In this document: in pieces, positions 4,894 to 44,212 of the stretch | Numbering within the stretch: position 1 is the stretch's first letter | Layout: the number at the start of each line of letters is the position of its first letter | NCBI GenBank assembly: GCA_964481585.1 | Contig: CAYZVT010000001.1 | Span: 1-44,212 of the forward strand | DNA from: an uncultured Pirellulales bacterium | Lineage (GTDB): Bacteria; Planctomycetota; Planctomycetia; Pirellulales; CAYZVT01 | Direction of reading: 5' to 3' | Length of the DNA: 44,212 bases | Program-made: the position numbers and the translations under genes | The notes under the pieces: model-generated | The model's input: the letters and a program-made list of their open reading frames with translations, nothing else | Databases searched by the model: none | Told to the model about the DNA's origin: nothing

Positions 4894-4906
4894 GAGGGCC
4901 AATTCT

Positions 4907-20679: not shown

Positions 20680-21221
20680 GAGCGCTCCTCCGCAGCGAGC
20701 GTGCGTTCGATGCACGTAAATAGATTGCGGCGGATACGGGTCAGCGCCTTGTAGACCGTCTTGGCGGGGCGGTTCAGTTGTTCAGCCACATCTTTGATCG
20801 CGGCTCCGTGCTGGTAGCAACGCTTGATGAGATCCCGTTCTTTGGGCGACAGTCGTTCGACGCAGCTGGCCAAAGCGCGAAGCTGGTCTGGCTGAGCGTC
20901 GGCGGTCTGCACCGCCTCGGCCGCGACTGCTTCCAAAAAGGCTTCGCTGAATAGTTCTGGCACGCGCTTTTGGCGACGCCGGAAGGCGAGCACCTGATAG
21001 TAGGCGACTTTGCAGGCCCAGGCCGGAAAATTACTGTTCGGCTCGAACTCAGAGAACGACTGCCAGAGGGCGACGTAGGTTTCTTGCAGCACGTCCTCCA
21101 CATCGTTCCACTCAGGCAGCAGCGTCCGCACATAGGCATGAATCCGCGCCTGGTGGATCGAGACGAGCCGCAAGAAGTCGGTGGTTTCCAGCCCTTCGCT
21201 CCCGCTTTCCCGCGTATGCAT
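20676..21221 (-). CDS. ECF sigma factor
   Basis: 181 aa from ATG 21221. Region 2 VEDVLQETYVALWQSFSEFEPNSNFPAWACKVAYYQ. Region 4 IKDVAEQLNRPAKTVYKALTRIR. Confidence 0.85.
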   Translation of the reverse strand: MHTRESGSEGLETTDFLRLVSIHQARIHAYVRTLLPEWNDVEDVLQETYVALWQSFSEFEPNSNFPAWACKVAYYQVLAFRRRQKRVPELFSEAFLEAVAAEAVQTADAQPDQLRALASCVERLSPKERDLIKRCYQHGAAIKDVAEQLNRPAKTVYKALTRIRRNLFTCIERTLAAEERS

Positions 21222-26782: not shown

Positions 26783-27190
26783 CTACAGCGCGAAATGCTG
26801 TTCTTCACGATCAGCCTGAACTTCGATTACCAGCCCGTCGGCATATTCGGGCGGAATCAGATCAATGCGTTCCGGTTGCAGTTCGTCGGTGGAAGACGAC
26901 TCGATCATCCGCCCGGTCTCTTGCATCGCGTTGAAGGTCACCAGCACTTTGCCGTGAGGGACTTCTTCGGCGCGGTAACGCCCGTTGCGAATCACGGCTG
27001 TGACTCCGCCCCCGCGATGCGGGTCTTGCGGCAGAAACATGATTTTGCCCTCCGTTAATGGCTGGCCGGCGACCGTCACCGTTCCAGCCAGCGTCGCGTG
27101 AGGGTAAGTCGGTTGCGGAGCGCCGCAGGCGACGATCCACGGCAACAGCAAGCCGGCCAGCGCGGCGGCGCTCAAGGGCGTTTTGTTCAT
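26783..27190 (-). CDS. small lipoprotein, carboxypeptidase-regulatory-like beta-sandwich
   Basis: 135 aa. Signal peptide plus lipobox IVAC. TLAGTVTVAGQPLTEGKIMFLP. Its start overlaps the upstream gene stop (ATGA at 27187-27190). Paralog of 169..615. Confidence 0.7.
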   Translation of the reverse strand: MNKTPLSAAALAGLLLPWIVACGAPQPTYPHATLAGTVTVAGQPLTEGKIMFLPQDPHRGGGVTAVIRNGRYRAEEVPHGKVLVTFNAMQETGRMIESSSTDELQPERIDLIPPEYADGLVIEVQADREEQHFAL

Positions 27191-29223: not shown

Positions 29224-29303
29224 GGATACCTCGCGCCGGCTAACAACAAGTCGGAGGAATTGGACCGTGAGCATGGCTGCACTTTTTCCCCTGCAATGCG
29301 CTC

Positions 29304-30953
29304 TCAGGGATGCGATGGCGGCGGCGCTGCGGTCGCCGGTACAGGCCCTGCTTCGAAAAGAATCTTGATCTGCTCGGCGCTCAGTGCTCGATCGTACAGA
29401 TGCACCTCGTCAACCGATCCTGCGAAGAAGGCGTCGCGTCCCCGGGCCGTGCCCCGCTGGTGGGCGAGCTTGCTGTGTCGCAAGCCCATCAGCACTTGGC
29501 TGTGGGCGGTGTCGTAGCGTTCCAGCTGCGCCCCGCGGAGGCGACCGTAGCGCTCTCCGTTGCGATAGAGCGTGATCGTGCCCGACGATTCGTAAGTGAT
29601 GGCCAACAGGGCCGTCTCGCCGGGCAGCATCGGCTCGGGGACGACAAACTGAGGCCGCTGCTGGGTCCGGCGAAAATAGTCGCTGCCGTTGATCCAGACC
29701 AGTGGCGCGATTTCGGCGAACACCAGACCGTCGAAAATCTGCGCGCGCGGCTTTTCGAGAATCACCACGCCGCCGCCTTGTTGTTCAAAATTGGCGGGCG
29801 CTACCCAGGCAACGAGCGAATACTCGCTAAGATCTTTCGCCAAGGGAGAGGCCCGCAGGTAGCCGTCCACGCCGTTGAGCAGCAGGCGTCCCTGCGCGAT
29901 TGTCGCGCTGCCGTGCAATGCGCCGTGCAGACCGCCGATGTGATCCAGGGCGCTATCGTCGTTGAACGTCCAGCGATGGATCAGCGCGCGTTCAAGCCCT
30001 TCGCGGGCGGCGGCGGCTACCATCTCGGGCAGGTCCGCTGTGCGCAAGAACCGTTCCGGCTGCGAGGAGTAGGTGGGCGACGTTTCGGGGGAAGGCGTTT
30101 TGGCAAGCCGCGTCGCCTGGCCGACCGCCAGCACGAGCGGTGGGGAGCCGTTGGTGGGCTGAACGAGCACGGACCCGGAGAAGACATGGATCTCGGCGTC
30201 TCCCCGCGCATCGACCGCCACGCCGAACTCGGTCCCCAGGTCCACCACCGTCCCCCGGGGCGTTTCAATCGCAAACTCCGCCGTCGCTTTGGCCACCAGA
30301 GCCGTAAGTTTGCCCCGTAGCAACCGCCCCCTGTGCGGCGCGGCCAACTGGAACCGCGCCGGACCGCTCAATACGACGCGGGTTCCCTCCTGAAAGGCGA
30401 TCTCGACCGTTCCCCGCTCCAGTTTCAGCACTTTCCCCTGCCGCAACGCCGCACCCGCCGCGATGTCTGGACTGCCCGCCGCCCACTGGCAGTCAATCGC
30501 CTGGGTCAATCGCGCCAGCACAGCGGGCGCCGAGTGAGGTTGCGGTAAAGGACTCGCCGGAGGCGGGACGCGGCGCACATGCACTTGCGCCGACGTCAAA
30601 AGCAGCGAGACAATCGCCACCAGCGCAAAGACCACCGAGAAGCCCGAAGTCCGCGTTAAGTAGTCGCGCACCGCCGCCCAGCCGCTGCGCGAGGGGTCGG
30701 GCAGCGGCGCGATGGTCAGCGGCACCGGCGGCGGAGCGGCCGTCTCCGGCAACGGCAAAACCGTCCGCCGCATCTCCGTCCGCCAATGGATCTCAGTGTG
30801 GAGATCAAAATACTCCAGATAAACCTGCCGCGCCGCCGGGTCGTTCGCCAGCAGCTGCTCTAGTTGCTGCACTTGCTGGCGAGTGAGCATGCCGCTGCAT
30901 AGGCCGTCGATCAGCGCCAGCAGCGTATCGCGTGATTCCTGCGGGGCGCTCAT
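29304..30953 (-). CDS. FecR-family anti-sigma factor with C-terminal LamG sensor domain
   Basis: Its ATG at 30953 overlaps the sigma gene stop (ATGA). One TM segment (FSVVFALVAIVSLLL). FecR region (AEFAIETPRGTVVDLGTEFGV). LamG-type tail FFAGSVDEVHLYDRALSAEQI. Confidence 0.8.
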   Translation of the reverse strand: MSAPQESRDTLLALIDGLCSGMLTRQQVQQLEQLLANDPAARQVYLEYFDLHTEIHWRTEMRRTVLPLPETAAPPPVPLTIAPLPDPSRSGWAAVRDYLTRTSGFSVVFALVAIVSLLLTSAQVHVRRVPPPASPLPQPHSAPAVLARLTQAIDCQWAAGSPDIAAGAALRQGKVLKLERGTVEIAFQEGTRVVLSGPARFQLAAPHRGRLLRGKLTALVAKATAEFAIETPRGTVVDLGTEFGVAVDARGDAEIHVFSGSVLVQPTNGSPPLVLAVGQATRLAKTPSPETSPTYSSQPERFLRTADLPEMVAAAAREGLERALIHRWTFNDDSALDHIGGLHGALHGSATIAQGRLLLNGVDGYLRASPLAKDLSEYSLVAWVAPANFEQQGGGVVILEKPRAQIFDGLVFAEIAPLVWINGSDYFRRTQQRPQFVVPEPMLPGETALLAITYESSGTITLYRNGERYGRLRGAQLERYDTAHSQVLMGLRHSKLAHQRGTARGRDAFFAGSVDEVHLYDRALSAEQIKILFEAGPVPATAAPPPSHP

Positions 30954-31483
30954 CGCGAGCGCTCCTGAGCGAGTGCCCGGTTGATGCAGTCGTAAAGCGA
31001 TTGGCGGATGCGTCGCAACGATTGATAGACGCCGTCGGCCGAACGCCCCCGGTGCGCGGCGACCTGCTTGATGCTGGTGTTGCGCTCGTAACACTGCTCC
31101 AGAAGCTGCCGGTCGGCAGGGCTCAATTTTTCCAAGCAGAAAGGCAGCGCCTCGCGCCGCGCCGCAAAGAGATCCACCTGAGCAGCCCGCTCCGCGCTTA
31201 GCGCGGCCAGCAGCGATTGGCTGAAGACGGTTTGCTGGCGGCGTTTACTTTGGACAAAGTTGTTCGCTTCGTAATAGGCAATCCGGCATGCCCAGGCGAA
31301 GAAATTGGTGTCGGGTTGGAACTCGTCGAACTTGCGCCACAAAATCAGGCTCGTCTGCTGCAACAAATCTTCGGCGTCGGCCGTGTTTTGCACCAGCGCA
31401 TGCAAGTAGCCCAGCAACTGGCGTTGATGCTGGGAAAACAGTTCCACAAAAGCGTCGGGCCGTTTCTCCGTTTTTCTCGCCAT
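30950..31483 (-). CDS. ECF sigma factor
   Basis: 177 aa from ATG 31483. Region 2 AEDLLQQTSLILWRKFDEFQPDTNFFAWACRIAYYE. Region 4 IKQVAAHRGRSADGVYQSLRRIR. Confidence 0.85.
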   Translation of the reverse strand: MARKTEKRPDAFVELFSQHQRQLLGYLHALVQNTADAEDLLQQTSLILWRKFDEFQPDTNFFAWACRIAYYEANNFVQSKRRQQTVFSQSLLAALSAERAAQVDLFAARREALPFCLEKLSPADRQLLEQCYERNTSIKQVAAHRGRSADGVYQSLRRIRQSLYDCINRALAQERSR

Positions 31484-31724
31484 ATGCCATCTCTGGATAG
31501 TCGCGCGAATCGAACCGGCTACCGCCGAGCCAGCTCCGCCCCACGCCGCGACGGTCCGCCCGACAGAACGCCCCGCCATATAACTAACGTGGCGATCGCG
31601 AAGAATCTGAGGCAATTTTTTGCAACAGGCTGGCCGTTCCCCAATCCGTTGCCGTCAGCGCTCTTTAGCCTCCTGTAGAAACCGCGCGGAAGCGCCGTGA
31701 AACCACGATCAGCAACAAAGAAAC

Positions 31725-32149: not shown

Positions 32150-33961
32150 ATGCCCGAACCCGAGGAACTGGCCTATCGGCGTTGGCTCGGCTGGAAGCAC
32201 TCAACCGCACCGAACCATTACGAACTGCTGGGCGTCCCTAGCGAGGTTGCCGACCCGGATCAAATCTCTGCGGCCGCGCAGCGGCGTCTGGCGCAACTGC
32301 GGCAAGCCCAGCCGACAGGCGACGCGGAGGCAGCGCAGCTCAAGCGGCTGCTGTACGAAGTGACGCGGGCGCGGCAGTGCCTAGTCGATCCGCAACTGCG
32401 TGCCCGCTATGACCGCAGCCTCGCCGCGCCGGCGCTGGAGCCGCTCGACTTGGCGCTCTGCCCGGACTTGCCGCTCGAACCGCTCCGCGCGCCCGTGGCG
32501 ATCGGTGGTCACTTGCCGCCCCGCCAAGTCCTGTCCCGTTCCCGCGCGCTGGGCAAGCTCTCCGCGGGCTGGTGGGCCGGTGCCGCCGGCTCGGGGTTGC
32601 TGCTGTTGACCGGCGGCTTGATTTACCTGACCCGCGACGCCGACGCGATCCCCGTCGCTCAAGCCGACGCGCCGAGCCGCGAAGAGGCGTCGGCCGACAA
32701 TGCGCCGCCTCCGCCGACGCCACCGCGTCCGTCCAATGCGCCTCAGCCGCAGCCGAATGAAGCGCCCTTGCCCACGCCGGAACCCGCGCTGCCGGCCCAG
32801 TCGCTCCCGAGCGGTCCGCCTCCCGCTCCGTTTGCCAGCCTGCCGGCCGAGACGGAGTTGCCCCGGCGCGTGCTCTCGCAGACATTGGGCGTCGAGGCTG
32901 CCGGTTCGCGGCGACTCGGCCCCGTAGCGCTGGCCGGACGCAAGTTGAGCGTCGCGCTTGACTGTTCGGCTTGCGATCTGCCCGGCAGTTATGCTTTTGT
33001 TGTCGAACCGCATCCCCAGAACGCCGAGCAATGGCTCGTGCGCCTTGCGCCGCGTCCTGCCGAGAACAATCCCGCGTCCGCAGAGGCGGCCGACTCGTCG
33101 CTCGCCGTCTTACCGGCATCGCTCGCGCCGGTGGCCTTGCTGACGGCGGCCGATGGGCAATTGGCGTTTCAGTGGAACGCGGAGAATACCGAGCCGCGGG
33201 CTGAACAGTTGCGCAACGCGGTGCTCCACCTGCGGGCCGGCGAGATGTCGCACGCGCTGCGGCTGCGCAGGGTGCGGCGCGTGCCGCCTTGGACGGTCGA
33301 CTTGGCCAGCGAGGCACACCGCATTGGCTTGGACCTGCCCCATCCGCCGCCGAGGGAGCAGTTGTTTTTGGAGATCACGGCGCTGGACGGTTTTGACCTG
33401 CAACTGGCGTACGTCGTGGCCGACCGCAAATTTGGCGTGGGCGAAGTGGCGGAGATTCCGATCCACGCCACCCCCGAGGCGAGCCTCAACCTGAGCTTGG
33501 TGCAACAGGACGAGGGTTGGGAGATCACCATCTTCAGCCATTACCAGATCGGTCGCCGCGCGACGGATTTACACGCCGAACAAGTGCGGACGACGCTGCT
33601 GGGTTTGAACAGGACGCTCCAGGAAAACGCCGCCGAGATGCGCGCCGCGCAAGCGGCGGTCGAAACGATCGGCCTCCGCTTGCGGTATCTACAGGGCCTG
33701 CCGGCTCCCACCGGGATAAGCCGCGAAATCCAGATGGCGGCACGGCTGCAAGAAGCGCGGAATCTGCAAGCGCAGCTCAAGAAGGCGCTAAGCACGATCC
33801 GCCGCTTTGAAAACTCGCTTCCCCGTACGCAGTTGGCGCTCCAGCAGATGACTTCCTTGGCGGCGGCTTGCACGGCACTGCATCAGCATGCGCGGGTCCA
33901 CTATCGCGTGGTGGCCGACACGCCCGCCGGGGAGCGGGAACTATCGATCGCCGGTCCCTAG
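32150..33961 (+). CDS. bitopic membrane protein: N-terminal J-like domain lacking HPD, TM, Pro-rich linker, beta-rich + coiled-coil C-terminal module
   Basis: ATG 32150 with AAGGA 9 nt upstream. In-frame TTG 31877 and ATG 31970 are possible but look non-protein-like. J-like sequence NHYELLGV...RRLAQLRQAQPTGD...LVDPQLRARYDRSL. TM segment at about 32567-32630. Confidence 0.65.
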   Translation: MPEPEELAYRRWLGWKHSTAPNHYELLGVPSEVADPDQISAAAQRRLAQLRQAQPTGDAEAAQLKRLLYEVTRARQCLVDPQLRARYDRSLAAPALEPLDLALCPDLPLEPLRAPVAIGGHLPPRQVLSRSRALGKLSAGWWAGAAGSGLLLLTGGLIYLTRDADAIPVAQADAPSREEASADNAPPPPTPPRPSNAPQPQPNEAPLPTPEPALPAQSLPSGPPPAPFASLPAETELPRRVLSQTLGVEAAGSRRLGPVALAGRKLSVALDCSACDLPGSYAFVVEPHPQNAEQWLVRLAPRPAENNPASAEAADSSLAVLPASLAPVALLTAADGQLAFQWNAENTEPRAEQLRNAVLHLRAGEMSHALRLRRVRRVPPWTVDLASEAHRIGLDLPHPPPREQLFLEITALDGFDLQLAYVVADRKFGVGEVAEIPIHATPEASLNLSLVQQDEGWEITIFSHYQIGRRATDLHAEQVRTTLLGLNRTLQENAAEMRAAQAAVETIGLRLRYLQGLPAPTGISREIQMAARLQEARNLQAQLKKALSTIRRFENSLPRTQLALQQMTSLAAACTALHQHARVHYRVVADTPAGERELSIAGP

Positions 33962-34022
33962 TTGATCGTCATGGCATTCGAGACGTAAGGCCACTTGTCC
34001 CTTGGAGCAAGAGCAAACAACG

Positions 34023-35375
34023 ATGAGCGCTTCGCGTGATTTGCGAATTCAGTTGCGGTCGCGGGTGACCTGCCCGCACTGCTGGAAAAGGTTTGCGCCG
34101 GAAGACGTGCTGTGGATCTCGACGCACCCGAGCCTGCTCGACGACCCGCTGTTGGGGAGCGACCACCAGCAGCGTTTTCTGCCGACGCGGTTTAATGTCG
34201 ATGGCAACGCAATCGACTCGCGCGGGTCCGTTTGTCAGGAGCTCGCCTGTCCGCATTGCCACCTGTCGGTGCCGCGGGCGTTATTGGAAGTCGCGCCGCT
34301 GTTTGTGTCGATCATGGGCACGCCGTCGTGCGGCAAGTCGTATTTTCTGGCCTCGATGACCTGGCAACTCCGCAAGCGGCTGCCGCAGTACTTCGCCATG
34401 ACGTTCGGCGACGCCGATCCGGTTTCGAACAAGATCGTGAACCACTACGAGGAAGAACAGTTCTTCAACCCCCGCCGCGATGAAGTCGTCAAGCTGGCGA
34501 AAACCGAAGAGCAAGGCGACCTGTACGACACGGTTCGCTATGGGGAGCAGGTGGTGACTTATCCGCGACCGTTTCTGTTCAGCGTTCATCCGGGGCGCGA
34601 CCATCCGCACCACGACAACGCCCGCAAGATCGCGCGAATCTTGTGCCTGTACGACAACGCCGGCGAATCGTTCGAGCCGGGCAAGGACACGGCGGCCAAT
34701 CCGGTGACGCGGCACTTGGCCCAATCGCAGGTGCTGATGTTCTGCTTCGATCCGACGCAAGATCCGCGCTTCCGCGACGCCTGCCGGGGCCATTCGCAAG
34801 ACCCGCAAGTGCTTGAACAGCCCGTTACCTCGCGGCAGGAAACCGTACTGCATGAAATCGCCGATCGCGTCCGCAAGCATACCAAGCTCAAGCAAGGAGA
34901 ACGCCACCAGCGGCCGCTGATCGTGATCGTCACCAAATACGACGCTTGGTGGCATCTGCTGGGCGAGCAGCACTTGGAATCCCCGTGGGTTTGGGGCCCG
35001 CAACAAAAATGGTGCGCTTTGCAAATGGCGCAGATCGACGACGTCTCGGCCCGGCTGCGGGCGGTGCTGTGGCAGCTCTGTCCCGAAATCGTCTCGGCCG
35101 CCGAGGGCTTTGCCGAACAGGTGGTCTACGTGCCGGTCAGCGCGACCGGCTGCGGCCCGCAGCGCGATCCGGCGACCGGCGCGCTGGGCGTGCGGCCGCG
35201 CGACATCAAGCCGCAATGGGTCGAAGTGCCGCTGCTGGTGGCGCTGGCCCGCTGGGGCGGCGGCATGATCGCCTACAAGCAACGCCCACGCTCGCAACCC
35301 CCTCATTCTCGTCCGGTCGCGGCCACCGCGCCGCCGTCGAGCAACGGCCATCCTCAGACGAAAGAGGCCCGATGA
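34023..35375 (+). CDS. Zn-ribbon + TRAFAC-class P-loop GTPase
   Basis: Two CPHC pairs (34071-34082 and 34248-34259). G1 GTPSCGKS (34317-34340). G3 DNAGE (34653-34667). G4 TKYD (34932-34943). G5-like VSATG. No TM segment. Confidence 0.8.
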   Translation: MSASRDLRIQLRSRVTCPHCWKRFAPEDVLWISTHPSLLDDPLLGSDHQQRFLPTRFNVDGNAIDSRGSVCQELACPHCHLSVPRALLEVAPLFVSIMGTPSCGKSYFLASMTWQLRKRLPQYFAMTFGDADPVSNKIVNHYEEEQFFNPRRDEVVKLAKTEEQGDLYDTVRYGEQVVTYPRPFLFSVHPGRDHPHHDNARKIARILCLYDNAGESFEPGKDTAANPVTRHLAQSQVLMFCFDPTQDPRFRDACRGHSQDPQVLEQPVTSRQETVLHEIADRVRKHTKLKQGERHQRPLIVIVTKYDAWWHLLGEQHLESPWVWGPQQKWCALQMAQIDDVSARLRAVLWQLCPEIVSAAEGFAEQVVYVPVSATGCGPQRDPATGALGVRPRDIKPQWVEVPLLVALARWGGGMIAYKQRPRSQPPHSRPVAATAPPSSNGHPQTKEAR

Positions 35376-37930
35376 GCCAGGAACTGATTTACACCTCCGC
35401 CCCGCGCGGCTTGAAAGTCGGCAGCCGGGGGTTTTGCACCGTCGCCAGTACACCCGGTATGGCCAAAAATCTGGCCGAACGGCTCGAAGCCCTGAGCGGC
35501 TATCGGCATGTCTTTCCGCCACAAGATCCGCAGGCCGCGCTCAACCCCGTGGCGTGGTCGTGCCTCGCGCTGCAACTGGGGCCACTGCGCTACTGGGTGC
35601 TTTCGCGCGTGGCCGACGCGGGGCTGGATTATTCGCAGCGCACCAATAAGCTCGCCCATCATTTGGTCCTGGCCCAAGGCGAACTGCCGGCCGCCGGCCC
35701 CGCCGCGACGCTTGCGCAGCCGGGCGTGATGGAGACCCGTTGGACGGGCGAGCCGCGCCTGCTCACCAGTGGTCGCCCGCTACCCAAGGGCGACGCGCCA
35801 CCGAGCGTCTGTCACGCTTGGCAGCAAACGGCCGGCGACGCCGGTTGGGCGGGCGTCCTGGCGCAAACGCTGATTGACGGCCCGCGCGAGGCGTGCTTAA
35901 TCTTCCGCCCGGGCCAAGACCTGCTGCCGCTGATCCGCGAGGCACAAGCCTTGCTGCCGGCTGCGCTGCGCTGGCAAGCGACGTTCAGTACCTACTACAC
36001 GAAACTGCCGGCGGGAGCCGAATGCGCGTGGCGGTGCGTCGTCGATGGCACGCCCGAAGCAACCGCCGCGCGGCGCGCGGCGCATGCCTTGGTGCTCGAC
36101 TTAACCCGTCCCCTCGGCGCCGCCCCACAAACCACGGCGACCACCGCCGCCCGGCAAGGCCAATTGCTCACCTTGCCCGCCCCGCGCAGCGCGACGCCCG
36201 ACGCCGCACCGGACGCCGCCACCCCCGAGTCCACCGCCGCCGGGCGGTCCAGCGGCGACTACGGCCTCGCGCCGCCCGCCCTGGTCCAACCGCCCGACCG
36301 AGGCTTCCCCCCGCCCCGCACCGGCGAACCCATCCGCTTCCACCGTCCCAAACGCCGCCGGCGCGGGATGTTGCTCGCGGCGTTAGTCGGACTCTTGGCG
36401 GGAATGGCAGGCGTGTGGGCCTGGCGTCAATATGGCACCGCCGCGCCCGTCGTAGCGACGGCCCCTAAAGCAGCGGCTGCATCGCCCGGCAAAGCGAAGC
36501 CCAAGAAAGTGGCGGAGAAGTCTGTAGAAACGGAGGCCGCTCGGCCCGTGCCGTCGGTGCCGGAGCAGAAAGATCGTGGCGCAGGTGGAGGCACTGCCAC
36601 ACCGCAAGGACGCGACATGGATGGCGACAATAATTCTTCGTCGAGGGACAGTGGTGACGCAGACCAACGCCAAAACTCAACGACCGAGACAGGCGGCGAA
36701 GGAGGATCGGAATCGACAGAGCCACGGAAAAAGAAGCATGCGGAAGCGCAAGAAGACAAGAAAGAGCCGAAGAAAGAGCCTCTCCCTAAACAAGAACCGG
36801 CAGCCAAGGATCCATTTGCCGACCTGCCGCTGGTGATTGTGATGAAAGAGACGGGAACTGGCAGCGGTTTGGGATCAGAACCAACCGACGATTCGATCAT
36901 CCTTCATGCCGATCCGAAATCTGTCGAGTTGGAGTTGATCCGGCTATTCGCAACTGCCCCGGGAGATGAACTTAAATTAAAAAATGAATCCGACGCAACA
37001 CAACGTACGTGGAACGTGATGTGGAATGCCACGTCGATTGGCAGCGTGAGCTTAACTTCCAACACGCCCAAAGAACGGCCTGCATCGGCGAAGCTCTCGT
37101 TCGAGTGGAAACTGCCCAAGGGCGAGGGCGAGGGCCTGAAGAAAAAAATTGCCGCATTCGGATTGCTCATTCGCGTGGGAAAAGAAAAGGTCGCTTGCCG
37201 GTGGATTACCGACAAGCCCTTGGCGACAAAAAATAGATTGACGCTTAGCCAGAGACACCAGGACGGCAGATTGATATTGCCAGGGTTACCTAAGGTGAAC
37301 TCACCGTTCGGATACGACCTTCAGATTCTTTCAGCTTCCTATCCCAATCCGAATCAATGGAACAAGAAGCTTTCTCGCGAGATGGTTTTGTTAGACTCGG
37401 GACCGATTGACAACACTGGCAATTACCATCGCCTCCTTTGCCGTTGCCGTCTGAGCCTTGACCACACCCAGTCAAGTATCGGATACGATCTTCGAGTCGT
37501 CGGCTTTACGCATGAACATACTCGAAGCCTGGAGTACGGCGAAAAGAGCATTGCAGACTGGCTTGAGCAGAACCGTGGGACTTCATCAGACAGGTTACAG
37601 CGCGTTACGAATGCTGAACAAAGGCGAGGCGATCTGAGCGGGGAAGTGGACGATATGACTCAACAACTTGAGAAAGCCCATGACAAAAATAAAAAGCAGA
37701 TAGAACAGCAGCTAGAAGACGCGAAAAAGAAGCTACGCAGCGCGGAGCATGAGCTAGCAAAGGTGCAATTTGACAAAGCCGTGGACGACTTTTCTCGGGC
37801 GCTTCAAAAGCAAGATGTCACGCTCTCCGTGCGCATCGTGCTTGTTGATCCTCAGAAACGCTTTCCTCCGGTTCCGGTTTTGGATTTTACTCGCGATACT
37901 CACAGCGAAACCCTTACGACGCGGAACTAA
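35372..37930 (+). CDS. GAP1-like (GTPase-associated protein 1-like) bitopic protein with charged low-complexity linker and low-GC C-terminal module
   Basis: Its ATG overlaps the GTPase stop (ATGA at 35372-35375). N-terminus MSQELIYTSAPRGLKVGSRGFCTVAS...DYSQRTNKLAHHLVL. TM segment at about 36368-36424. K/E/D/S-rich linker. The C-terminal 350 aa are encoded at 40-45% GC. Confidence 0.7.
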   Translation: MSQELIYTSAPRGLKVGSRGFCTVASTPGMAKNLAERLEALSGYRHVFPPQDPQAALNPVAWSCLALQLGPLRYWVLSRVADAGLDYSQRTNKLAHHLVLAQGELPAAGPAATLAQPGVMETRWTGEPRLLTSGRPLPKGDAPPSVCHAWQQTAGDAGWAGVLAQTLIDGPREACLIFRPGQDLLPLIREAQALLPAALRWQATFSTYYTKLPAGAECAWRCVVDGTPEATAARRAAHALVLDLTRPLGAAPQTTATTAARQGQLLTLPAPRSATPDAAPDAATPESTAAGRSSGDYGLAPPALVQPPDRGFPPPRTGEPIRFHRPKRRRRGMLLAALVGLLAGMAGVWAWRQYGTAAPVVATAPKAAAASPGKAKPKKVAEKSVETEAARPVPSVPEQKDRGAGGGTATPQGRDMDGDNNSSSRDSGDADQRQNSTTETGGEGGSESTEPRKKKHAEAQEDKKEPKKEPLPKQEPAAKDPFADLPLVIVMKETGTGSGLGSEPTDDSIILHADPKSVELELIRLFATAPGDELKLKNESDATQRTWNVMWNATSIGSVSLTSNTPKERPASAKLSFEWKLPKGEGEGLKKKIAAFGLLIRVGKEKVACRWITDKPLATKNRLTLSQRHQDGRLILPGLPKVNSPFGYDLQILSASYPNPNQWNKKLSREMVLLDSGPIDNTGNYHRLLCRCRLSLDHTQSSIGYDLRVVGFTHEHTRSLEYGEKSIADWLEQNRGTSSDRLQRVTNAEQRRGDLSGEVDDMTQQLEKAHDKNKKQIEQQLEDAKKKLRSAEHELAKVQFDKAVDDFSRALQKQDVTLSVRIVLVDPQKRFPPVPVLDFTRDTHSETLTTRN

Positions 37931-37932
37931 CC

Positions 37933-40851
37933 ATGCTGCGCCAGCACCAGTTTATTGATGAGATTCAGCAGGCCGTGTATGCGCCGATGTCGGCGGAGCC
38001 GGAGTTGTTGCGGGATGCGGCGGCGGAGTATAGCGAGGCGTGTAGCACGGCCAATGCGCGGCTGCGGCAGGTGGGTTACTTGTTGCGGCAGGGGCTGCGG
38101 AGCGAGGCGCTGCAGGAGGCCGAACGCGAGCCGAACTTGCTCGATCTGGTCGCGCTGCTCGATTTTCCCGAGGCACCGGTCTGGTGTGCGCTGTTGCAAC
38201 AGTGGGGCATGGCGACGCCGCCGGCGCTGGCGGTCGATGTCGCGGCCGATCTGAATCAAGCCTACGCCGATCAAGAGCCGCTCAAAGAGATGCTCAAAAA
38301 GCATCGGCTGTTGGCCCTGGCCCGTGCGCCGCTCCATGCCCGCATCCATACTTTGCGGCGCATCCGCCAGGCCGATCCGGACAACGCCGCCTGGTATGCC
38401 GATCTCCAAGCGTTGGAAGAAGCCCGGCTGAATCAACTCGCCCAGGAAGCGGAGCGGGCCTTTGCGCGGGCGGATGCCGAGCAACTGCGTGCCCTGGCGT
38501 CGGAACTGCAAGCGGGCGACTGGCTCGCGCCCCCCGCGCCGGAACTTGTGGCCCGCGTGCGGCAACTCGAACAACAGATCGCTGCGAGACAAGCGCGGCT
38601 GGCGCTGGAGCAGTTGGAGCCGGAATTGACGGCAGCCTACGCCGCCTTCGATGTGGAAGCAGGCGCTGCGCTCCGCACGCGCTGGGAAGCACTGGCCGCC
38701 CAGGCGCAGCTTGCGCCTCACGACCCGCTGGCCGAACGGGCGGAGCCGGCGCTGGAATGGTTGGCCGACCAGGATGAGCTGGCCGCTCGCCGCGCGGCGC
38801 ATCAGGCGGCGGTCTATCGGCTGGAGGAAGCGCTGGCCGACGATGCTACGCCTGGACAACTCGAAAAGCTCTACCATGCCGTGCCCGACCACGAGGAGGG
38901 CGTGCCGCTTCCGTTGCAAAATCGCCTCCGCGCGCGGGTTGCCGCCGCCGAGCTGAACCAGCGCCGCAAGCACATGCTGACCGTGGTCGGCATCGCGGGG
39001 GGATTGCTGCTCGTCGCCGGCGTGGTTTTTATGCTCCTGCGGATGCAACAGCACGGCCGGCAGGTCACCGCGAGCACGCAAAGCTTACGGCAACTGATCG
39101 ACCATGGCCGCTTGGACGAAGCCGACCAGTTTTTCGATAACCTCCGCACGAGCGCTCCCAAAGTCGCCGAAGCCGCCGAAGTCCAACAGCAGCTTGGCCG
39201 ACTGCGCGGCGCGCAATCCGACGAACAAGCACGCCGCGCGGCGTTCACCCAGGCGATCGAGCAAGCCGAAGCGGCAGGTCCAGAGCAGCCCGACGAAACG
39301 GCGCTGGAACTGGCCCGCGAAAAAGTCCGCACCGACAGCGAAAAGGCACGCCTCTCGCGATTTGAATCGGCCGTCGCCGCAGCCCGCCGCGCACAGCAGA
39401 AAGCGCGGGACGACATATTTTTGGCGAAACTCGCAGCGCTGCGCGACAAGCTCGCCCAGTTGGAAGAAAGCACCCGCGAGAATGAACAGTCGGAAGCGGA
39501 GCTTGCGCAGCTGGCCGCCGAGCTGCGCAGCCTGCGCGAGAGCAACGGGCTGGTCACGCGGTCGATCTTGGCCCAAGCCGATCCGTTGATCGTACGGACC
39601 GACGCGCTGCGCAAGCATGTGCGGACGCGGATCGCGCAGCAAAAGCAGTTGCGTGAAATCACTACTGCCGTGGGCGACGTGTCACGATTCAGCGAAGAGT
39701 TGGCGCGGTTTGCCACGCTGTATCCCGAAGCCGCCTCCGCCGCGGCGTTCCGCACGGTGGCTCAGGAAGCCGATACTTGGCAGGGCATGGTCGAATGGTC
39801 GCAACTGCTGGCCGCGCCCGAGCTGCGCCGACTCGCCGCGCTTTCGCCCAAGGCGGCCCAAGCGTTGTTGATGCGCGGCCAGGCGCTGCGGCAGCGTTAT
39901 GCCGGGATTCCGCTGGCGGAAGAGTTCGCCGACAAGGAACCGTACCTGCAGGACTTGGCGCAGCGGCAATTCGACTCCGACGATCCGCCCTCCGCTGCCG
40001 CGCCGCAAAACCAGACGAAGCAACTCCTGAACGATCCGCTCATCGCCAACATCTGGATGGTGCAAGAGGCCGACGGCACGCGCTACTATCTGACGCGCAA
40101 GCCGGACATGAGCAATGCCAGCGCGACGGGACGGGTGGCGATCGAGTACCTCGCCGGCTTCGATCTGAAAACGCAGCGCGCCGGCATTGAGACGCGCACC
40201 TTGACCTACAATGACGAAGCGCCGCAAACGCGGGCGGCCCGCCGGTGCCTGGAGCATCTCCGTGATCTGACGGCGAATAACTGGGAGGAGACGTATTTTC
40301 GGCTGTTGAAAGAAGTGCTCGACGACGAGCAAATCGACCCGATCCTCAAGCTGGTACTGGTCCAGCGCATCGCCTCGCATGGCGGGCTGGCGAGCACCAT
40401 CTTCCGCACCGCTTGGGAGCCGTGCGAACGGCATCTGAAAAGCGCCGAATTGCAACTTGGCGCGCCGTGGATGCTGCCCCGCGACGACGAGGCCGTGCAG
40501 GCCCGCAACGCCGCCGAGCATGTGCTCGCGACGCTTCCCCCCTGGAATGAAGCGGCGCGCGCGGCGGCGACGAAGCTGCGCGAGGTCCAGGCGCCGCCGC
40601 GGCATCAGTACCACTGGATCGGCTGGCTGGAGCATGATCCGCAGGCGGGCTGGCGGTGCCGCACGCCGAGCGGCGCGTTCTCCGACGGGAATTTGCTGGT
40701 GATCTATCGTCCGGCAGATGCCCAGCGGGCGGAACTCGCGCCCGTGGCCACGCGATCGGGCGGTAGCATCACCTGGCAGGCCGAAACCTCGACGGCATTT
40801 CAAGCCGGACGTCCCATTTTTTTACAAGTCACGGGCCGAGCCACGAAGTGA
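37933..40851 (+). CDS. 972-aa predominantly helical bitopic membrane protein
   Basis: ATG lies 2 nt after the previous stop. About 350-aa N-terminal helical region. One TM segment (MLTVVGIAGGLLLVAGVVFMLL, about 38974-39042). Long A/E/Q/R-rich coiled-coil stretch, then a globular C-terminal region. Confidence 0.7.
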   Translation: MLRQHQFIDEIQQAVYAPMSAEPELLRDAAAEYSEACSTANARLRQVGYLLRQGLRSEALQEAEREPNLLDLVALLDFPEAPVWCALLQQWGMATPPALAVDVAADLNQAYADQEPLKEMLKKHRLLALARAPLHARIHTLRRIRQADPDNAAWYADLQALEEARLNQLAQEAERAFARADAEQLRALASELQAGDWLAPPAPELVARVRQLEQQIAARQARLALEQLEPELTAAYAAFDVEAGAALRTRWEALAAQAQLAPHDPLAERAEPALEWLADQDELAARRAAHQAAVYRLEEALADDATPGQLEKLYHAVPDHEEGVPLPLQNRLRARVAAAELNQRRKHMLTVVGIAGGLLLVAGVVFMLLRMQQHGRQVTASTQSLRQLIDHGRLDEADQFFDNLRTSAPKVAEAAEVQQQLGRLRGAQSDEQARRAAFTQAIEQAEAAGPEQPDETALELAREKVRTDSEKARLSRFESAVAAARRAQQKARDDIFLAKLAALRDKLAQLEESTRENEQSEAELAQLAAELRSLRESNGLVTRSILAQADPLIVRTDALRKHVRTRIAQQKQLREITTAVGDVSRFSEELARFATLYPEAASAAAFRTVAQEADTWQGMVEWSQLLAAPELRRLAALSPKAAQALLMRGQALRQRYAGIPLAEEFADKEPYLQDLAQRQFDSDDPPSAAAPQNQTKQLLNDPLIANIWMVQEADGTRYYLTRKPDMSNASATGRVAIEYLAGFDLKTQRAGIETRTLTYNDEAPQTRAARRCLEHLRDLTANNWEETYFRLLKEVLDDEQIDPILKLVLVQRIASHGGLASTIFRTAWEPCERHLKSAELQLGAPWMLPRDDEAVQARNAAEHVLATLPPWNEAARAAATKLREVQAPPRHQYHWIGWLEHDPQAGWRCRTPSGAFSDGNLLVIYRPADAQRAELAPVATRSGGSITWQAETSTAFQAGRPIFLQVTGRATK

Positions 40852-40895
40852 GCACGAATCTCGCCTTCGCTTTTTGGAAACGTGAGGTGTCAATC

Positions 40896-41410
40896 ATGGA
40901 ACAAGCACTCTACATCCGCATTCGCGGCCGGGTTCAAGGTCCCTTCGAACCGGACAAGCTCAAGGCGCTCGCCAAGCGAGGGCAACTGAGCCGGATGCAT
41001 CAGGTTTCTCCCGACGGCGCGAACTGGCAGCGGGCGAGCGATTATCCCGACCTGTTCGTCACGACCGCGACCGTGCCGGCAGCCGCGATGGGCAACGGCG
41101 CAGTGGGTAACGGCGCGGCGAGCGCGCCCGCGTTTGAGGAGCAAACGACTTCGGCCGAACCGCTGGGGGCGCAAGGCTCGGCCCAATGGTACTACGCCAA
41201 GGGGGAGAGCCAATTCGGTCCCACCGACTTTGAGCACTTGCGGCAACTTGCCGCCAGCGGCCAACTCCGCCCTCAGGATGCCGTCTGGAGCGAAGGCATG
41301 AGCGGTTGGGCCACGGCCGACAGCATCGCCGGGCTAACCTTTGGCGCCGCGCCGCAAGTCGCCGGCTCTGAACACGGGGTGCATGGTTCTCAGACGAGCA
41401 TAGCCGGCCG
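40896..41410 (+). CDS. GYF-GYF domain protein, N-terminal part of a frameshifted gene
   Basis: ATG 40896 with a GTGAGGTG SD sequence. GYF_2-like motifs ALYIRIRGRVQGPFEPDKLKALAKRGQL and QWYYAKGESQFGPTDFEHLRQLAASGQLRPQDAVWSEGMSGWATADSI. After about 41410 the frame turns Arg/Gly-rich and junk-like, although it stays open to 42014. Confidence 0.55.
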
Positions 41411-41414
41411 GCCG
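41403..41414 (+). repeat. (GCCG)3 tetranucleotide tract at the GYF-gene frame junction
   Basis: Read directly: gccg gccg gccg at 41403-41414. Removing one unit fuses the two frames. Confidence 0.9.
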
Positions 41415-41454
41415 CACGTCGCGTCGCGAGAGTACGGAAGTCAGCGACAGCATC

Positions 41455-41856
41455 GTGCGGCCGCTGTTGGCTTCCAAAGGCTGGGTGACATTTCTCGGGG
41501 TCTTTGCGATTATCTTGGGCGGCATTGCGCTCTTGCCGGCCATGTTGCTCTTTTCCGCAGCGGCCCGCGAACCGGAGGTGCTGTTTCTAGGTCTCAGCCC
41601 TCTGCTGAACTGCGCGGTCTTAGTCACGACCGGAGTGCTGCTGCTGGGCTACAGCGGGGCAATCCGCGACCTGGCCTATACGCCCAGCACCGTGCGACTC
41701 GCCGCCGCGATGCGGAAACTCTCGACCTTCTGGACGTTCGCGGGGATTGTGGCGCTCGTGTTCCTGGGGCTCACGGTGGTGGTGGTTTTATTGATGGTCC
41801 TGGGACTGGTCGGCATGGCGGCTGCGCTGTCCGACGTGATGCTTCTGACTCTCTAA
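41455..41856 (+). CDS. polytopic membrane module (C-terminal part of the GYF gene, or a separate GTG-initiated ORF)
   Basis: The frame is open from 41404. It predicts 3-4 TM helices (WVTFLGVFAIILGGIALLPAMLLF, VLVTTGVLLLGY, FWTFAGIVALVFLGLTVVVVLLMVLGLVGM). Its stop lies 15 nt before the MotA-like start, matching the operon packing. Confidence 0.55.
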   Translation: MRPLLASKGWVTFLGVFAIILGGIALLPAMLLFSAAAREPEVLFLGLSPLLNCAVLVTTGVLLLGYSGAIRDLAYTPSTVRLAAAMRKLSTFWTFAGIVALVFLGLTVVVVLLMVLGLVGMAAALSDVMLLTL

Positions 41857-41871
41857 CTCGATCGGACCCTT

Positions 41872-42786
41872 ATGAATCTTTCGGCTACGACCGAGGCCTC
41901 GGCGGCCGCATCGGCGTCCAACCTAACTGGGCAAGAGCCGACCTTGTCGTGGGCCCGCCGCGACTTGGAGCAGCGGCTCGGCTTTCGCGGGGCGCGCTTC
42001 ACGCGCGTGAATAATCTGTTGTCGTTTCTGCTCGCGGGAGTGGCGACCGTCGGATTCTATCTGTTGCTGCTGCCGATCGCCGAGACGCCCCTGGCGGCGA
42101 TGTTTACCGAGCGCGGCCCGACTCCTTACTTCATCGCCTTCTTCTCCTGTTGGTCGCTGGCGATCCTGCTGCTTAAATGGGGGAAGCTGAAATTGCAGCG
42201 CCAAGCGCTCGCGCATCGCGTCGTGCCCGACGATCCGACCTTTGTGCTCTCGCCTAGCACGGCCGACGATGTGATGCACCGCATTTACGCCACGGTCGAT
42301 GATCCCCGGCATTTCTTGCTTTTCAATCGGATCGTGATCGCGCTGTCGAACCTTCGCAATCTGGGCCGCGTCTCCGATGTGGATGAGATTCTCCGCTCGC
42401 AAGCCGAACACGACGAGTCGTCGGTCGAAACCAGCTACGCGCTGCTCAAAGGCTTTATCTGGGCGATTCCGGTGCTGGGGTTCATCGGCACGGTGCTGGG
42501 CTTGTCGCAGGCCATCGGCGGCTTCGGCAGCGTGCTGGGCAATTCGCAAGACCTGAGCCAAATCGCCGCTTCGCTGAAGGGCGTGACGGCCGGGCTGGCA
42601 ACCGCTTTTGAAACGACGCTGGCCGCACTGGTTGCCGCGCTGGCGATTCAAATGCTGTTCACGTTCCTCAAAAAGTCCGAGGAAGAGTTTCTGGACGAGT
42701 GCGCCGAGTATTGCCATCGCCATGTGGTCAACCGCCTGCGGCTGATGCCGTTTGAATCCCAGGATGCGCAGCATGTCGCGTCGTAA
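41872..42786 (+). CDS. MotA/TolQ/ExbB proton-channel family protein
   Basis: 304 aa. TM helices plus the family signature region FIWAIPVLGFIGTVLGLSQAIGGF....LKGVTAGLATAFETTLAALVAALAIQMLF. Confidence 0.85.
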   Translation: MNLSATTEASAAASASNLTGQEPTLSWARRDLEQRLGFRGARFTRVNNLLSFLLAGVATVGFYLLLLPIAETPLAAMFTERGPTPYFIAFFSCWSLAILLLKWGKLKLQRQALAHRVVPDDPTFVLSPSTADDVMHRIYATVDDPRHFLLFNRIVIALSNLRNLGRVSDVDEILRSQAEHDESSVETSYALLKGFIWAIPVLGFIGTVLGLSQAIGGFGSVLGNSQDLSQIAASLKGVTAGLATAFETTLAALVAALAIQMLFTFLKKSEEEFLDECAEYCHRHVVNRLRLMPFESQDAQHVAS

Positions 42787-43597
42787 TCGGGATGTCACGC
42801 CATTTTCACTGTTCGCGTTTCAGGACATCATCACCGCGGTGACGGGCATCATCGTGCTGGTGACGCTGCTGTTGGCGCTGGACCTGTTCACCCGCAAGCC
42901 GAACACGCCCGACCTCGATACCCATGCGCTGGCCGAACAGGCTCGCCGGGCGATTGCCGCCGCGCAGGCGGAGCAGGTCGAGTTGGAGGCGCAACGGGCG
43001 CAGGATCAGACGGTCGTGTTGGCAACCGCCCGTCTTTCGCCGAGCGAGGTGGAACGGCGGCGGTACGATCTCACGCAGGAAAGTGCCCAGTTGCGGCGTG
43101 AATTGTCCGAGCTGGACGCGCAAGTGGCCCGTGCGGCGGCGGCCCGCGACAAACTGGAAGCGGAGCGTTACGAACGGCGCGACGACGCCGAGCAGCTCGC
43201 CGCGCTGCGGGCGCAGTTGGCGGCGCTCGAGGCGAAGCTGGCGGAGTTGGAGCAGTCGGAGCGGATGATTTACAACTTGCCCCCCGACGCCGAGAAGCAA
43301 GCCTGGCTGGTCGAGGTGGGCGAGGAGGAAGTGCAAGTGGCCCGCGCGGGGATCGACGAGCCGCCGCAAACGTACTCTGCCCGCGAGACTGTGCTCAGCG
43401 ACTCGCCGCTGACGGAATGGATTCGCACGCGCCAGCCAGCTCGCGAGTACTTCGTGCTTTTGGTGCGCCCGCAGGGGGTCCGCGTTTTCGACGACTTGCG
43501 CGAGCATTTGCGCCGGGAGGGATTTGAATACGGCTTCGATCTCATCGGCCGGGACGTGACGGTGTTTGACCCGGAACATGGAGCCGCCGCACCATGA
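42773..43597 (+). CDS. ExbD/TolR-like single-pass protein with inserted coiled-coil stalk
   Basis: ATG 42773 (AGGA SD sequence) overlaps the MotA-like gene by 14 nt. N-terminus FSLFAFQDIITAVTGIIVLVTLLLAL is ExbD-like. About 100-aa A/E/Q/R heptad region. C-terminus YFVLLVRPQGVRVFDDLREHLRREGFEYGFDL is ExbD-periplasmic-domain-like. Confidence 0.6.
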   Translation: MSRRNRDVTPFSLFAFQDIITAVTGIIVLVTLLLALDLFTRKPNTPDLDTHALAEQARRAIAAAQAEQVELEAQRAQDQTVVLATARLSPSEVERRRYDLTQESAQLRRELSELDAQVARAAAARDKLEAERYERRDDAEQLAALRAQLAALEAKLAELEQSERMIYNLPPDAEKQAWLVEVGEEEVQVARAGIDEPPQTYSARETVLSDSPLTEWIRTRQPAREYFVLLVRPQGVRVFDDLREHLRREGFEYGFDLIGRDVTVFDPEHGAAAP

Positions 43598-44212
43598 GAC
43601 GCCGCGCGACCGACGATCAAAGCAGCTTGGAACTGCTGCTCGACACGATCACAAATACGTTTGGCGGGGTGTTGTTCATTGCAATCCTGATCGCGATCTT
43701 GCTGCAACTCAGCGGCCGCATTGAGCGCGAAGCGCCGCAGCCGGTGCCGCAGGCCGAGTTGATCGCGCTGCGGCAGCAATTGGCCGACGCGCAAGCGGCG
43801 CTTGGGGCGCTGCGCGCGGCCGTGGAAGCCCAGGAGCAGGTAGCCGCCGATTTCAGCCCGCAGGCACTCAGCGACCAGGCGCGCGAGGTAGAGGCGCTGG
43901 AGCAGCAGCGCGACGCGCTGCGGACGAAGCGGCTGGCGCTGCTGGAACAACTGAGCGGGCTGCATGTGGAGTCGGGGGCGATTGCCGCCGAGTTGGAAAG
44001 ACTCGCTGCGGAGCAGGCGACCGTTGCCGAAGCGGTACGCCAGGCCGAGGCGGCACTACGGAGCGAGGTGGAGCAGCGCTCCGTCGCCGGACGATTGCCC
44101 AAAACCCGCCCCACCTACAAGCGCGAAGTGGCATGCCTCGTGCGGCACGGGCGGCTGTACTCGTACTTCCAAAACCCGCCCCAAAGGATGGTCGAGTCGC
44201 CCGTCGCGGAGC
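43594..44212 (+). CDS. second ExbD/TolR-like coiled-coil protein (paralogous architecture), 3' partial
   Basis: Not in the ORF track because it has no stop within the window. My translation from ATG 43594 (ATGA overlap with the previous stop) is open to the window end: MRRRATDDQSSLELLLDTITNTFGGVLFIAILIAILL, followed by coiled coil. Confidence 0.6.
   Translation, partial: MRRRATDDQSSLELLLDTITNTFGGVLFIAILIAILLQLSGRIEREAPQPVPQAELIALRQQLADAQAALGALRAAVEAQEQVAADFSPQALSDQAREVEALEQQRDALRTKRLALLEQLSGLHVESGAIAAELERLAAEQATVAEAVRQAEAALRSEVEQRSVAGRLPKTRPTYKREVACLVRHGRLYSYFQNPPQRMVESPVAE

Follow-up and report, generated by a model that had tools for sequence, protein, structure and literature searches.

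A probable DO-GTPase2-family GTPase and its GAP1-encoding operon in an uncultured Pirellulales bacterium

GTPase-centric systems were predicted by Kaur, Burroughs, Iyer and Aravind (eLife 2020; PMC7159879), whose study is the source of the Pfam families of these systems. One or two N-terminal zinc ribbons were reported there in 60% of the GTPases of the family, two being usual in the GAP1-N2 systems. A glutamate in the Walker B motif and a downstream gene for GTPase-associated protein 1 (GAP1) were described for the same family, whose name, DO-GTPase, rests on presumed dimers. Planctomycetes were named among the hosts of the GAP1-N2 systems, and C-terminal transmembrane (TM) segments were frequent in GAP1. 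For the planctomycete variant, a pair of GYF domains was described, joined to either trypsin or a TM-rich region, and a rapidly evolving FNIII-repeat protein was said to typify GAP1-N2 systems. Classical effector domains and a patchy distribution were reported for the wider GAP1-N1/GAP1-N2 family, and the 'conflict system' role is a prediction of the same study. In the present work, a GTPase gene (34023-35375) and its neighbours were analysed in a window of 44,212 nucleotides (nt) from an uncultured Pirellulales bacterium of the Planctomycetota (assembly GCA_964481585.1, contig CAYZVT010000001.1, positions 1 to 44,212 of the forward strand); the window means this whole stretch, and all positions refer to it.

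The product of 34023-35375 very probably belongs to the DO-GTPase2 family and is likely to act as a GTP switch paired with GAP1. On balance, it is also considered to be a catalytically competent, guanine-specific GTPase of the TRAFAC class, placed in a GAP1-N2-type system of the planctomycete paired-GYF variant. This kind of GTPase/GAP1 pair has already been described computationally, in 2020, and the planctomycete example in the window is a typical one.

The locus shares with the GAP1-N2 system of Kaur et al. a TRAFAC GTPase with a DxxGE motif and a predicted N-terminal zinc module, an immediately downstream GAP1 with a C-terminal TM segment, a TM-rich protein with paired GYF domains, an adjacent J-domain-like protein and a planctomycete host. 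It differs from that system in having one GTPase paralogue, and in having one evident Cys4 site with a conserved 55-residue insert where the published system has two ribbons. No FNIII-repeat protein was detected in the operon of the window, whereas a protein here called protein D, a MotA/ExbB gene and two stator-like genes were found to be added; the text of PMC7159879 makes no mention of MotA, ExbB or TolQ or of anything like protein D. The features of the locus are collected in Table 1.

Table 1. Features of the GTPase locus. Residue numbers (aa, amino acids) refer to the respective protein; A1 is the alignment of 34 GTPase homologues.
Feature	Position (nt)	Residues or size	Strand	Basis or remark
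Protein A	32150..33961	603 aa	+	ATG chosen against the homologue of locus L001; mechanical open reading frame (ORF) from 31877
GTPase, very probably DO-GTPase2 family	34023..35375	450 aa	+	ORF translation
N-terminal zinc-binding module (predicted)	34071..34259		+	Two CPHC, invariant columns in A1, model strands
G1 / P-loop GTPSCGKS	34317..34340	aa 99-106	+	G99, P101, G104, K105 invariant in A1
Candidate G2 threonine	34503..34505	T161	+	Invariant K160-T161 pair; loop before model strand 168-173
G3 / Walker B DNAGE (in LCLYDNAGE)	34653..34667	aa 211-215	+	D211, N212, A213, G214 invariant
G4 TKYD, guanine-specificity motif	34932..34943	aa 304-307	+	T304, K305, D307 invariant
G5 VSATG	35136..35150	aa 372-376	+	S373, G376 invariant; A374 in at least 90%
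GAP1	35372..37930	852 aa	+	Pfam GAP1-N2 (E 1.2e-28), GAP1-M (E 1e-14)
GAP1 N2 domain	35372-35761	aa 1-130	+	PF20013
GAP1 M domain	35810-36109	aa 147-246	+	PF20014
GAP1 proline-rich juxtamembrane linker	36257-36349	aa 296-326	+	Reads DYGLAPPALVQPPDRGFPPPRTGEP; cytoplasmic side
GAP1 TM segment	36365-36421	aa 332-350	+	Hydropathy scan
Protein D	37933..40851	972 aa	+	Helical N-terminal domain aa 1-345; TM aa 351-369
Paired-GYF protein with TM-rich C-terminus	40896..41856		+	GYF_2 twice, E 1.1e-26 (ORF 40848-42014)
GYF domains	~40908-41057 and ~41187-41336		+	GYF_2
Four-TM part of GYF gene	41404-41856		+	Other reading frame; tblastn with orthologues
MotA/ExbB/TolQ-family proton-channel protein	41872..42786	304 aa	+	PF01618, E 1.9e-12
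Single-pass membrane protein G2	42773..43597		+	Overlaps end of channel gene; TM starts with invariant Asp (FQDIIT)
H2, paralogue of protein G2	43594..44212 (cut by window end)		+	LLDTxxNxFGG motif; ATGA overlap with gene of protein G2

Motifs, family and fold of the GTPase

The ATG at 34023 was taken as the start of the gene because it agrees with the homologues; a TTG at 34002 is a possible upstream start. The G+C content of the window was 62-67%, at which long spurious ORFs were common, and the GTPase ORF was regarded as real despite this because thousands of relatives were retrieved. A large protein collection was found to contain 2446 relatives at E <=1e-3, the best 120 of these 2446 all having E <=1.2e-163, and a profile search of a representative library gave 2127 cluster representatives at E <=1e-3, with 654 of them below 1e-30. 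No record was found by an exact-sequence lookup of the 450-aa protein.

An earlier note on this DNA had named CPHC, G1, G3, G4 and G5 motifs, and a script placed each of them exactly where that note had put it. The motifs were judged to be beyond chance because they are invariant or near-invariant across the 34 homologues of A1 (55-73% identity). The glutamate E215, which follows DxxG and is typical of the family, was present in 90% or more of the A1 sequences, and the K160-T161 pair was taken as the presumed G2 motif. The G domain was found to be enlarged by inserts, and the large insert between G1 and G3 proposed in the earlier note was confirmed, its size being measured as ~100-104 residues and not ~95. 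Among the proteins of the window operon, the GTPase alone contained a Walker A motif. An ATPase was ruled out by the invariant G4 [NT]KxD, and an inactive pseudo-GTPase was ruled out as all motifs are invariant.

The first CPHC occupies residues 17-20 (34071-34082) and the second residues 76-79 (34248-34259), with 56 residues from C20 to C76. The module was found to contain invariant C17-P18-H19-C20, C71 and C76-P77-x-C79-H80 in A1, together with a near-invariant H35. Strands assigned by DSSP lie beside both pairs in the model (15-16, 23-24, 74-75 and 82-83), which is compatible with a zinc ribbon that has a loop between its two knuckles. The loop contained conserved RFLPxRF, G61, A63, D65 and G68, and its residues 32-56 were modelled as disordered, with a predicted local distance difference test (pLDDT) score <50. 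The two knuckles would form one evident Cys4 zinc site, zinc binding and site geometry being predicted from the model, and the residues C71, H19, H80 and H35 could, from their conservation, provide a second zinc site.

In a Pfam scan of the window GTPase, DO-GTPase2 (PF19993, gathering score 27 bits) was the one meaningful match (E 1.1e-5, 25.7 bits). The same family was matched by 31 of the 34 homologues at E <0.01 (best 2e-9), five also matching DO-GTPase1, and the only other Pfam match among the 34 was a zinc ribbon in one member. The GTPase of a further locus (L060) reached 30.7 bits against DO-GTPase2, and many homologues were found to carry a precomputed PF19993 label. The 'double-GTPase' affiliation raised in the earlier note was thereby recovered, below the cut-off in the window protein itself and broadly among its homologues.

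The AlphaFold2 model of the GTPase, built on A1, had a pLDDT of 81 and a predicted template modelling (pTM) score of 0.82, with low confidence in the first 7 residues, residues 32-56 and the C-terminal tail. A Foldseek search of the Protein Data Bank (PDB) gave 62 matches at E <=1e-3, and the best 50 of these 62 were all TRAFAC GTPases, in agreement with the class proposed in the earlier note. The matches listed included eEFSec, atlastin-1, EF-Tu/eEF1A, eIF5B, Rho/Rac/Ras and MglA (E 8e-6 to 8e-4). There is no close solved relative, because the TM-scores were low (0.2-0.3 on the query), and a profile search of PDB sequences gave no real relative, its matches being ankyrin noise and, at E 0.1, Der.

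GAP1 and the other genes of the operon

The genes from the GTPase to the window end were found to be tightly packed, lying 2 to ~60 nt apart or overlapping. They were compared with 80 genomic loci (numbered with L), which were searched by tblastn with the window proteins. Matches to GAP1 were present in 72 of the 80 loci, to protein D, following GAP1, in 51, to the GYF protein in 45 and to the channel protein (41872-42786) in 21, the distal genes being out of view in many loci whose stretches were too short. The order GTPase-GAP1-protein D-GYF protein was found to be conserved across Planctomycetota, with GAP1 directly downstream of the GTPase in ~70 of the 80 loci, within the flank in 72, and downstream also in Pirellula staleyi DSM 6068. 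In P. staleyi, a cluster of nine genes on one strand, with unrelated genes of the other strand on both sides, contained, in order, a 765-aa protein, a 235-aa protein, the GTPase Psta_1114, GAP1, a 987-aa protein, the GYF protein, MotA_ExbB, and proteins of 276 and 303 aa. A promoter scan of the window revealed nothing like a sigma-70 site, and sites resembling terminators were few on the plus strand and all inside coding sequence.

The GTPase stop overlaps the GAP1 start in an ATGA (35372-35375), from which the earlier note had argued for a partner protein. The partner was supported by the frequent downstream GAP1 gene, whereas the overlap was not conserved, the tblastn matches of GTPase and GAP1 lying mostly ~10-240 nt apart where adjacent. 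Likewise, the description 'stand-alone' was correct for a GTPase not fused to another domain and incorrect for a gene that is part of an operon of at least eight genes.

The part of GAP1 beyond the TM segment was read, from the translation and weak coiled-coil-type matches, as a charged linker followed by a beta-rich stretch and a coiled coil; no further GAP1 domain model matched this C-terminal part. A TM segment at aa 326-383 was present in 52 of the 54 complete GAP1 orthologues, preceded by a linker of 70-127 residues usually containing PP or PPP. The AlphaFold2 model of residues 1-270, built on 40 sequences, had a pLDDT of 95.7 and a pTM of 0.93 and was composed of two alpha/beta lobes, the first with the order strand-strand-helix-strand-strand-strand-helix. 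The best fold match in a Foldseek search of the PDB was TagF of Acinetobacter, an accessory protein of the type VI secretion system (E 1.5e-3, probability 0.90), followed by the guanine nucleotide exchange factor (GEF) domain of DENND1A with Rab35 (E 1.5e-2), Pseudomonas TagF and C9orf72-SMCR8-WDR41 with ARF1. The FLCN GTPase-activating protein (GAP) complex and components of SEA/GATOR1 appeared further down, along with PAS/LOV domains.

The eukaryotic matches are longin/DENN-type regulators of small GTPases. As the best matches were of this type, GAP1 is suggested to be a GEF, a GAP or an effector platform, and a platform role of the N2-M part, in setting or reading the nucleotide state, may be held as a lead from the model. 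GAP1 resembles these regulators (DENND1-Rab35, C9orf72-SMCR8, FLCN-FNIP, GATOR1) and TagF in the two-lobed fold of N2-M and in adjoining its GTPase. It differs from them in the lack of sequence similarity (Foldseek E 1.5e-3 to 0.2, TM-score <=0.41) and in being membrane-anchored with a large non-cytoplasmic part. Neither DENN nor longin is mentioned in PMC7159879, and no paper linking TagF to DENN was found by a whole-word literature search.

Bacterial GYF domains bind proline-rich segments, and in GltJ a zinc ribbon-linker-GYF arrangement couples MglA-GTP to the TolQR-type motor of Agl (PMC11135422). From this affinity and this precedent, the proline-rich linker of GAP1 may, speculatively and by analogy, be a ligand of the GYF protein.

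Among the 43 complete GYF orthologues, the GYF region was followed by a membrane part in 35 (at least two TM segments in 30, one in five), by a secretion ATPase in seven and by a trypsin-like peptidase in one (Singulisphaera, L064:17075-18517, which also contained one TM segment and a GYF pair). In all, 36 of the 43 were counted as TM-rich. The secretion-ATPase loci (L066, L067, L070, L071, L072, L079 and L080; e.g. L070:13815-15704) belong to a Fuerstiella-like clade, in which a single GYF domain was found and GAP1 and protein D were short, ending just past the TM segment. The Pfam family T2SSE was confirmed for L070, and the other six were assigned from their length and Walker A motif.

Protein D was found to contain a long, helical and globular C-terminal part after its TM segment. 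Its N-terminal domain contained 23 invariant columns across 18 orthologues (alignment A5), and Pfam scans of this domain in the 18 orthologues gave scattered chance matches only. No match to protein D was found in Pfam, NCBIfam, PADLOC or the PDB. Protein D is a conserved unnamed core component of the planctomycete systems.

The channel gene was found downstream of the GYF gene in the 21 loci with 48-69% identity. It is followed by the genes of proteins G2 (not to be confused with the G2 motif) and H2, whose homologues follow the channel gene in 18 loci each. Both proteins contained a basic N-terminus, one TM segment beginning with an invariant Asp, a coiled coil and a C-terminal domain, and an hhalign comparison of their alignments (A2 and A3) gave a probability of 98.7% and an E of 2e-16. 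No Pfam or PDB relative of either was found, apart from coiled-coil noise, and neither matched an ExbD, TolR, MotB or OmpA domain. A TM Asp beside an ExbB-type gene recalls ExbD, TolR and MotB, by analogy rather than shown homology, so that the two proteins are candidate stator partners of the ExbB-like protein. The linkage of an ExbB-type channel with two stator-like proteins suggests an output on the membrane or the proton-motive force.

The locus resembles the Myxococcus MglA-GltJ-AglRQS system in bringing together a GTPase, a zinc ribbon, a membrane protein with GYF domains and a channel of the MotA/TolQ/ExbB type. The NCBIfam model of GltJ matched the window GYF protein at E 1.4e-6, in the GYF region only, with 27.7 bits against a cut-off of 450 bits. 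In contrast to the Myxococcus system, it is the GTPase and not the GYF protein that bears the zinc module, this GTPase does not resemble MglA, and homologues of Glt, AglZ and MglB are lacking. With Zorya (ZorAB), the locus shares a MotA/ExbB channel in a multi-gene membrane cluster and abundant coiled coils, and ZorA models matched the channel protein at E 4.5e-6 to 4e-4 over a channel core of 55-90 residues only. Unlike in Zorya, equivalents of ZorB, ZorC, ZorD and ZorE are lacking, and no other operon protein had a match in PADLOC at E <0.001.

Upstream of the GTPase, protein A contained a J-like helical domain, matched by the DnaJ model weakly and under the cut-off (E 0.003). The HPD tripeptide is missing, so that a role as Hsp70 co-chaperone is improbable. 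A candidate TM segment, WWAGAAGSGLLLLTGGLIYL, was read from the translation and was not flagged by the hydropathy scan. The protein was also found to contain a proline-rich linker, a region judged by eye to be beta-rich and a helical or coiled-coil-like C-terminal part. The C-terminal parts of protein A and GAP1 showed a weak and indecisive resemblance (E 0.06), and the beta-rich parts of both might be divergent beta-sandwiches. Relatives of protein A were present upstream of the GTPase in just 5-6 of the 80 loci, with 24-26% identity. At the Stieleria bergensis locus (L030:5612-8518), a gene for a 968-aa Ser/Thr protein kinase was found on the same strand, two genes upstream of the GTPase, which recalls the kinase theme reported for actinobacterial systems (PMC7159879).

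The rest of the window contained ordinary planctomycete genes (among them PSD/PSCyt, DUF1552, DUF1559 with a prepilin-type leader, PEP-CTERM, GH32 and a thiamine pyrophosphate enzyme). Three FecR-domain proteins were found (27187-31615 on the minus strand, 3307-5106 and 19015-20715), a LamG-type domain being present in two. One FecR gene adjoins a gene for a sigma factor of the extracytoplasmic function (ECF) type (30950-31615) and a PEP-CTERM/LamG protein. They resemble the usual ECF signalling modules of planctomycetes and have no relation to the GTPase. A strong positive AT skew (0.10-0.20) was observed at 35001-41000, with a dip of G+C to 0.58 at 36-38 kb; this is where GAP1 and protein D encode their Lys/Glu-rich linkers and coiled coils, and it is no island boundary.

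Conflict response or envelope machine

A regulated response system, answering conflict or an envelope insult, is considered most likely, over a constitutive machine; a conflict or stress role in particular is tentative and falls a little short of an even balance. In such a response system, the cytoplasmic GTPase would bind the N2-M module of the membrane-anchored GAP1 and would probably act as a nucleotide-dependent homodimer, since a single paralogue is present here. The N2-M module, two-lobed and alpha/beta with a longin-like first lobe, would set or read the GTP state, and sensing would fall to the extensive non-cytoplasmic portions that GAP1, protein D and protein A possess. The state of the switch would then reach an output module, for whose recruitment the GYF domains would act as adaptors. 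Here this output would be the four-TM protein with the ExbB-type channel and its two stator-like partners, and it would thus consist in a change of the membrane or of the proton-motive force. In favour of the response system, the domain fused to GYF was found to vary, in the core-plus-variable-output pattern of the GTPase-centric systems, and the wider family is associated with classical effectors (PMC7159879).

Several observations weigh against this interpretation. The DO-GTPase2 score of the window GTPase lies below the cut-off and covers profile positions 86-174 of 226 only. The GAP1 fold matches are weak even at their best, and the proline-rich GAP1 linkers were absent in the single-GYF T2SSE clade. 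No fn3 (FNIII) match was found at E <=0.1 in protein A, GAP1, protein D or the GYF protein. The GYF gene is frameshifted as assembled, the switch lying at ~41404-41440, at or just past the run GCCGGCCGGCCGC (41403-41415); it was read as an assembly error or a pseudogene because all 43 complete orthologues are single ORFs. Literature was searched in full text for the names and Pfam accessions of the family and for locus tags of P. staleyi, including Psta_1114; apart from PMC7159879, only unrelated texts were returned, and no experiment on any member.

Context and distribution count against a conflict role. No match to the GTPase was found by tblastn in plasmid and phage collections, and scans of the window gave no defence or mobile genes near the operon and no PADLOC system (PADLOC-DB 2.0). 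The GTPase, protein D, the GYF protein and protein A had no PADLOC matches, and those of GAP1 were weak (E 0.003-0.075, aa 714-814) and were read as coiled-coil noise. The earlier note had placed the GTPase in the GTPase-centred conflict systems; the family and the GAP1 partner uphold this, whereas the context is neither island-like nor mobile. Gene order was conserved across planctomycete orders, the GTPase clusters (average linkage) tracked lineage, and the type of output was specific to lineages, not variable between close relatives. The seven secretion-ATPase loci fell in one GTPase cluster, and the ExbB-linked loci were spread over many. GTPase paralogues or orthologues without an adjacent GAP1 were found at L042:9503-11263 (with an N-terminal extension of ~150 residues), L060:9956-11272, L033, L039, L046 and L055, and these six fell in one cluster with Isosphaeraceae-type loci of canonical operon (L038, L045 and L064).

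Much of this evidence favours a rival in which the same switch belongs to a vertically inherited, constitutive envelope machine, that is, a complex of the inner membrane, gated by the GTPase and driven by the proton-motive force, like Agl-Glt, Tol-Pal or Ton in its logic. Relatives of the GTPase were found in at least 542 species-level genomes over five labelled lineages (Pirellulales, Planctomycetaceae, Isosphaeraceae, Gemmataceae and Tepidisphaerales). The retention of the GTPase-GAP1-D-GYF order in the loci counted above, the clustering by lineage and the absence of a mobile or defence context fit such a machine, as does the linkage of ExbB and two stator-like genes in P. staleyi and in 21 loci drawn from many of the GTPase clusters. 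The weak match of the GYF protein to GltJ, which couples MglA-GTP to a TolQR-type motor, points the same way. Against these stand the classical effectors and patchy distribution of the wider family (PMC7159879), the fusion of GYF to trypsin or a secretion ATPase in other lineages, the absence in cis of the ExbB triad at many loci, including Stieleria and Singulisphaera, and the lack of a detectable ExbD, TolR or MotB domain in G2 and H2. The constitutive machine is considered somewhat unlikely. A fuller form of it, a phylum-wide, vertically inherited and non-immune machine in which a longin/DENN-like GAP1 N2-M controls a zinc-bearing GTPase gating an ExbB-type proton-motive-force motor, is improbable.

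A membrane-remodelling GTPase like dynamin or atlastin, working by nucleotide-dependent dimerisation of its G domain with GAP1 and protein D as membrane anchors, is more doubtful still. The G4 motif of dynamins is TKxD, as in the window GTPase, whose G domain is likewise enlarged, whose partners are all membrane proteins and whose family name alludes to dimers; atlastin-1 was among the best fold matches (E 8e-6, TM-score 0.26-0.35). These TM-scores were as low as those for EF-Tu or Rho, however, and no Pfam dynamin or GBP match was found in the window protein or the 34 homologues. In the model, the G domain was followed by neither stalk nor paddle nor helical bundle, and the protein ends ~50 residues past G5 before a disordered tail.

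A housekeeping GTPase of translation or ribosome assembly (Era, Obg, EngA or an EF-like protein) lying merely beside unrelated genes has a negligible chance and was ruled out by the profile and context results, since EF-Tu, eIF5B and eEFSec among the fold matches and the sub-threshold Der/EngA match are set against a conserved GAP1 partner, the lack of any housekeeping match in Pfam or NCBIfam (the latter giving noise only) and, as the earlier note had held, a zinc module and a ~100-residue G1-G3 insert foreign to those families.

Meaning for the Planctomycetota

Planctomycetota are known for unusual membrane biology and for division without FtsZ. If the envelope-machine interpretation is true, the operon would bear on planctomycete cell biology, and a longin/DENN-like control of an ExbB motor, if true, would give prokaryotes an equivalent of the membrane regulation by longin/DENN proteins and GTPases. 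The conserved gene order, protein D, the extension by ExbB and stator-like genes and the longin/DENN-like GAP1 model go beyond what was described in PMC7159879, and the phylum-wide, non-mobile distribution questions the label 'conflict'. If the conflict interpretation is true, the operon would be a widespread uncharacterised immune module of Planctomycetota.

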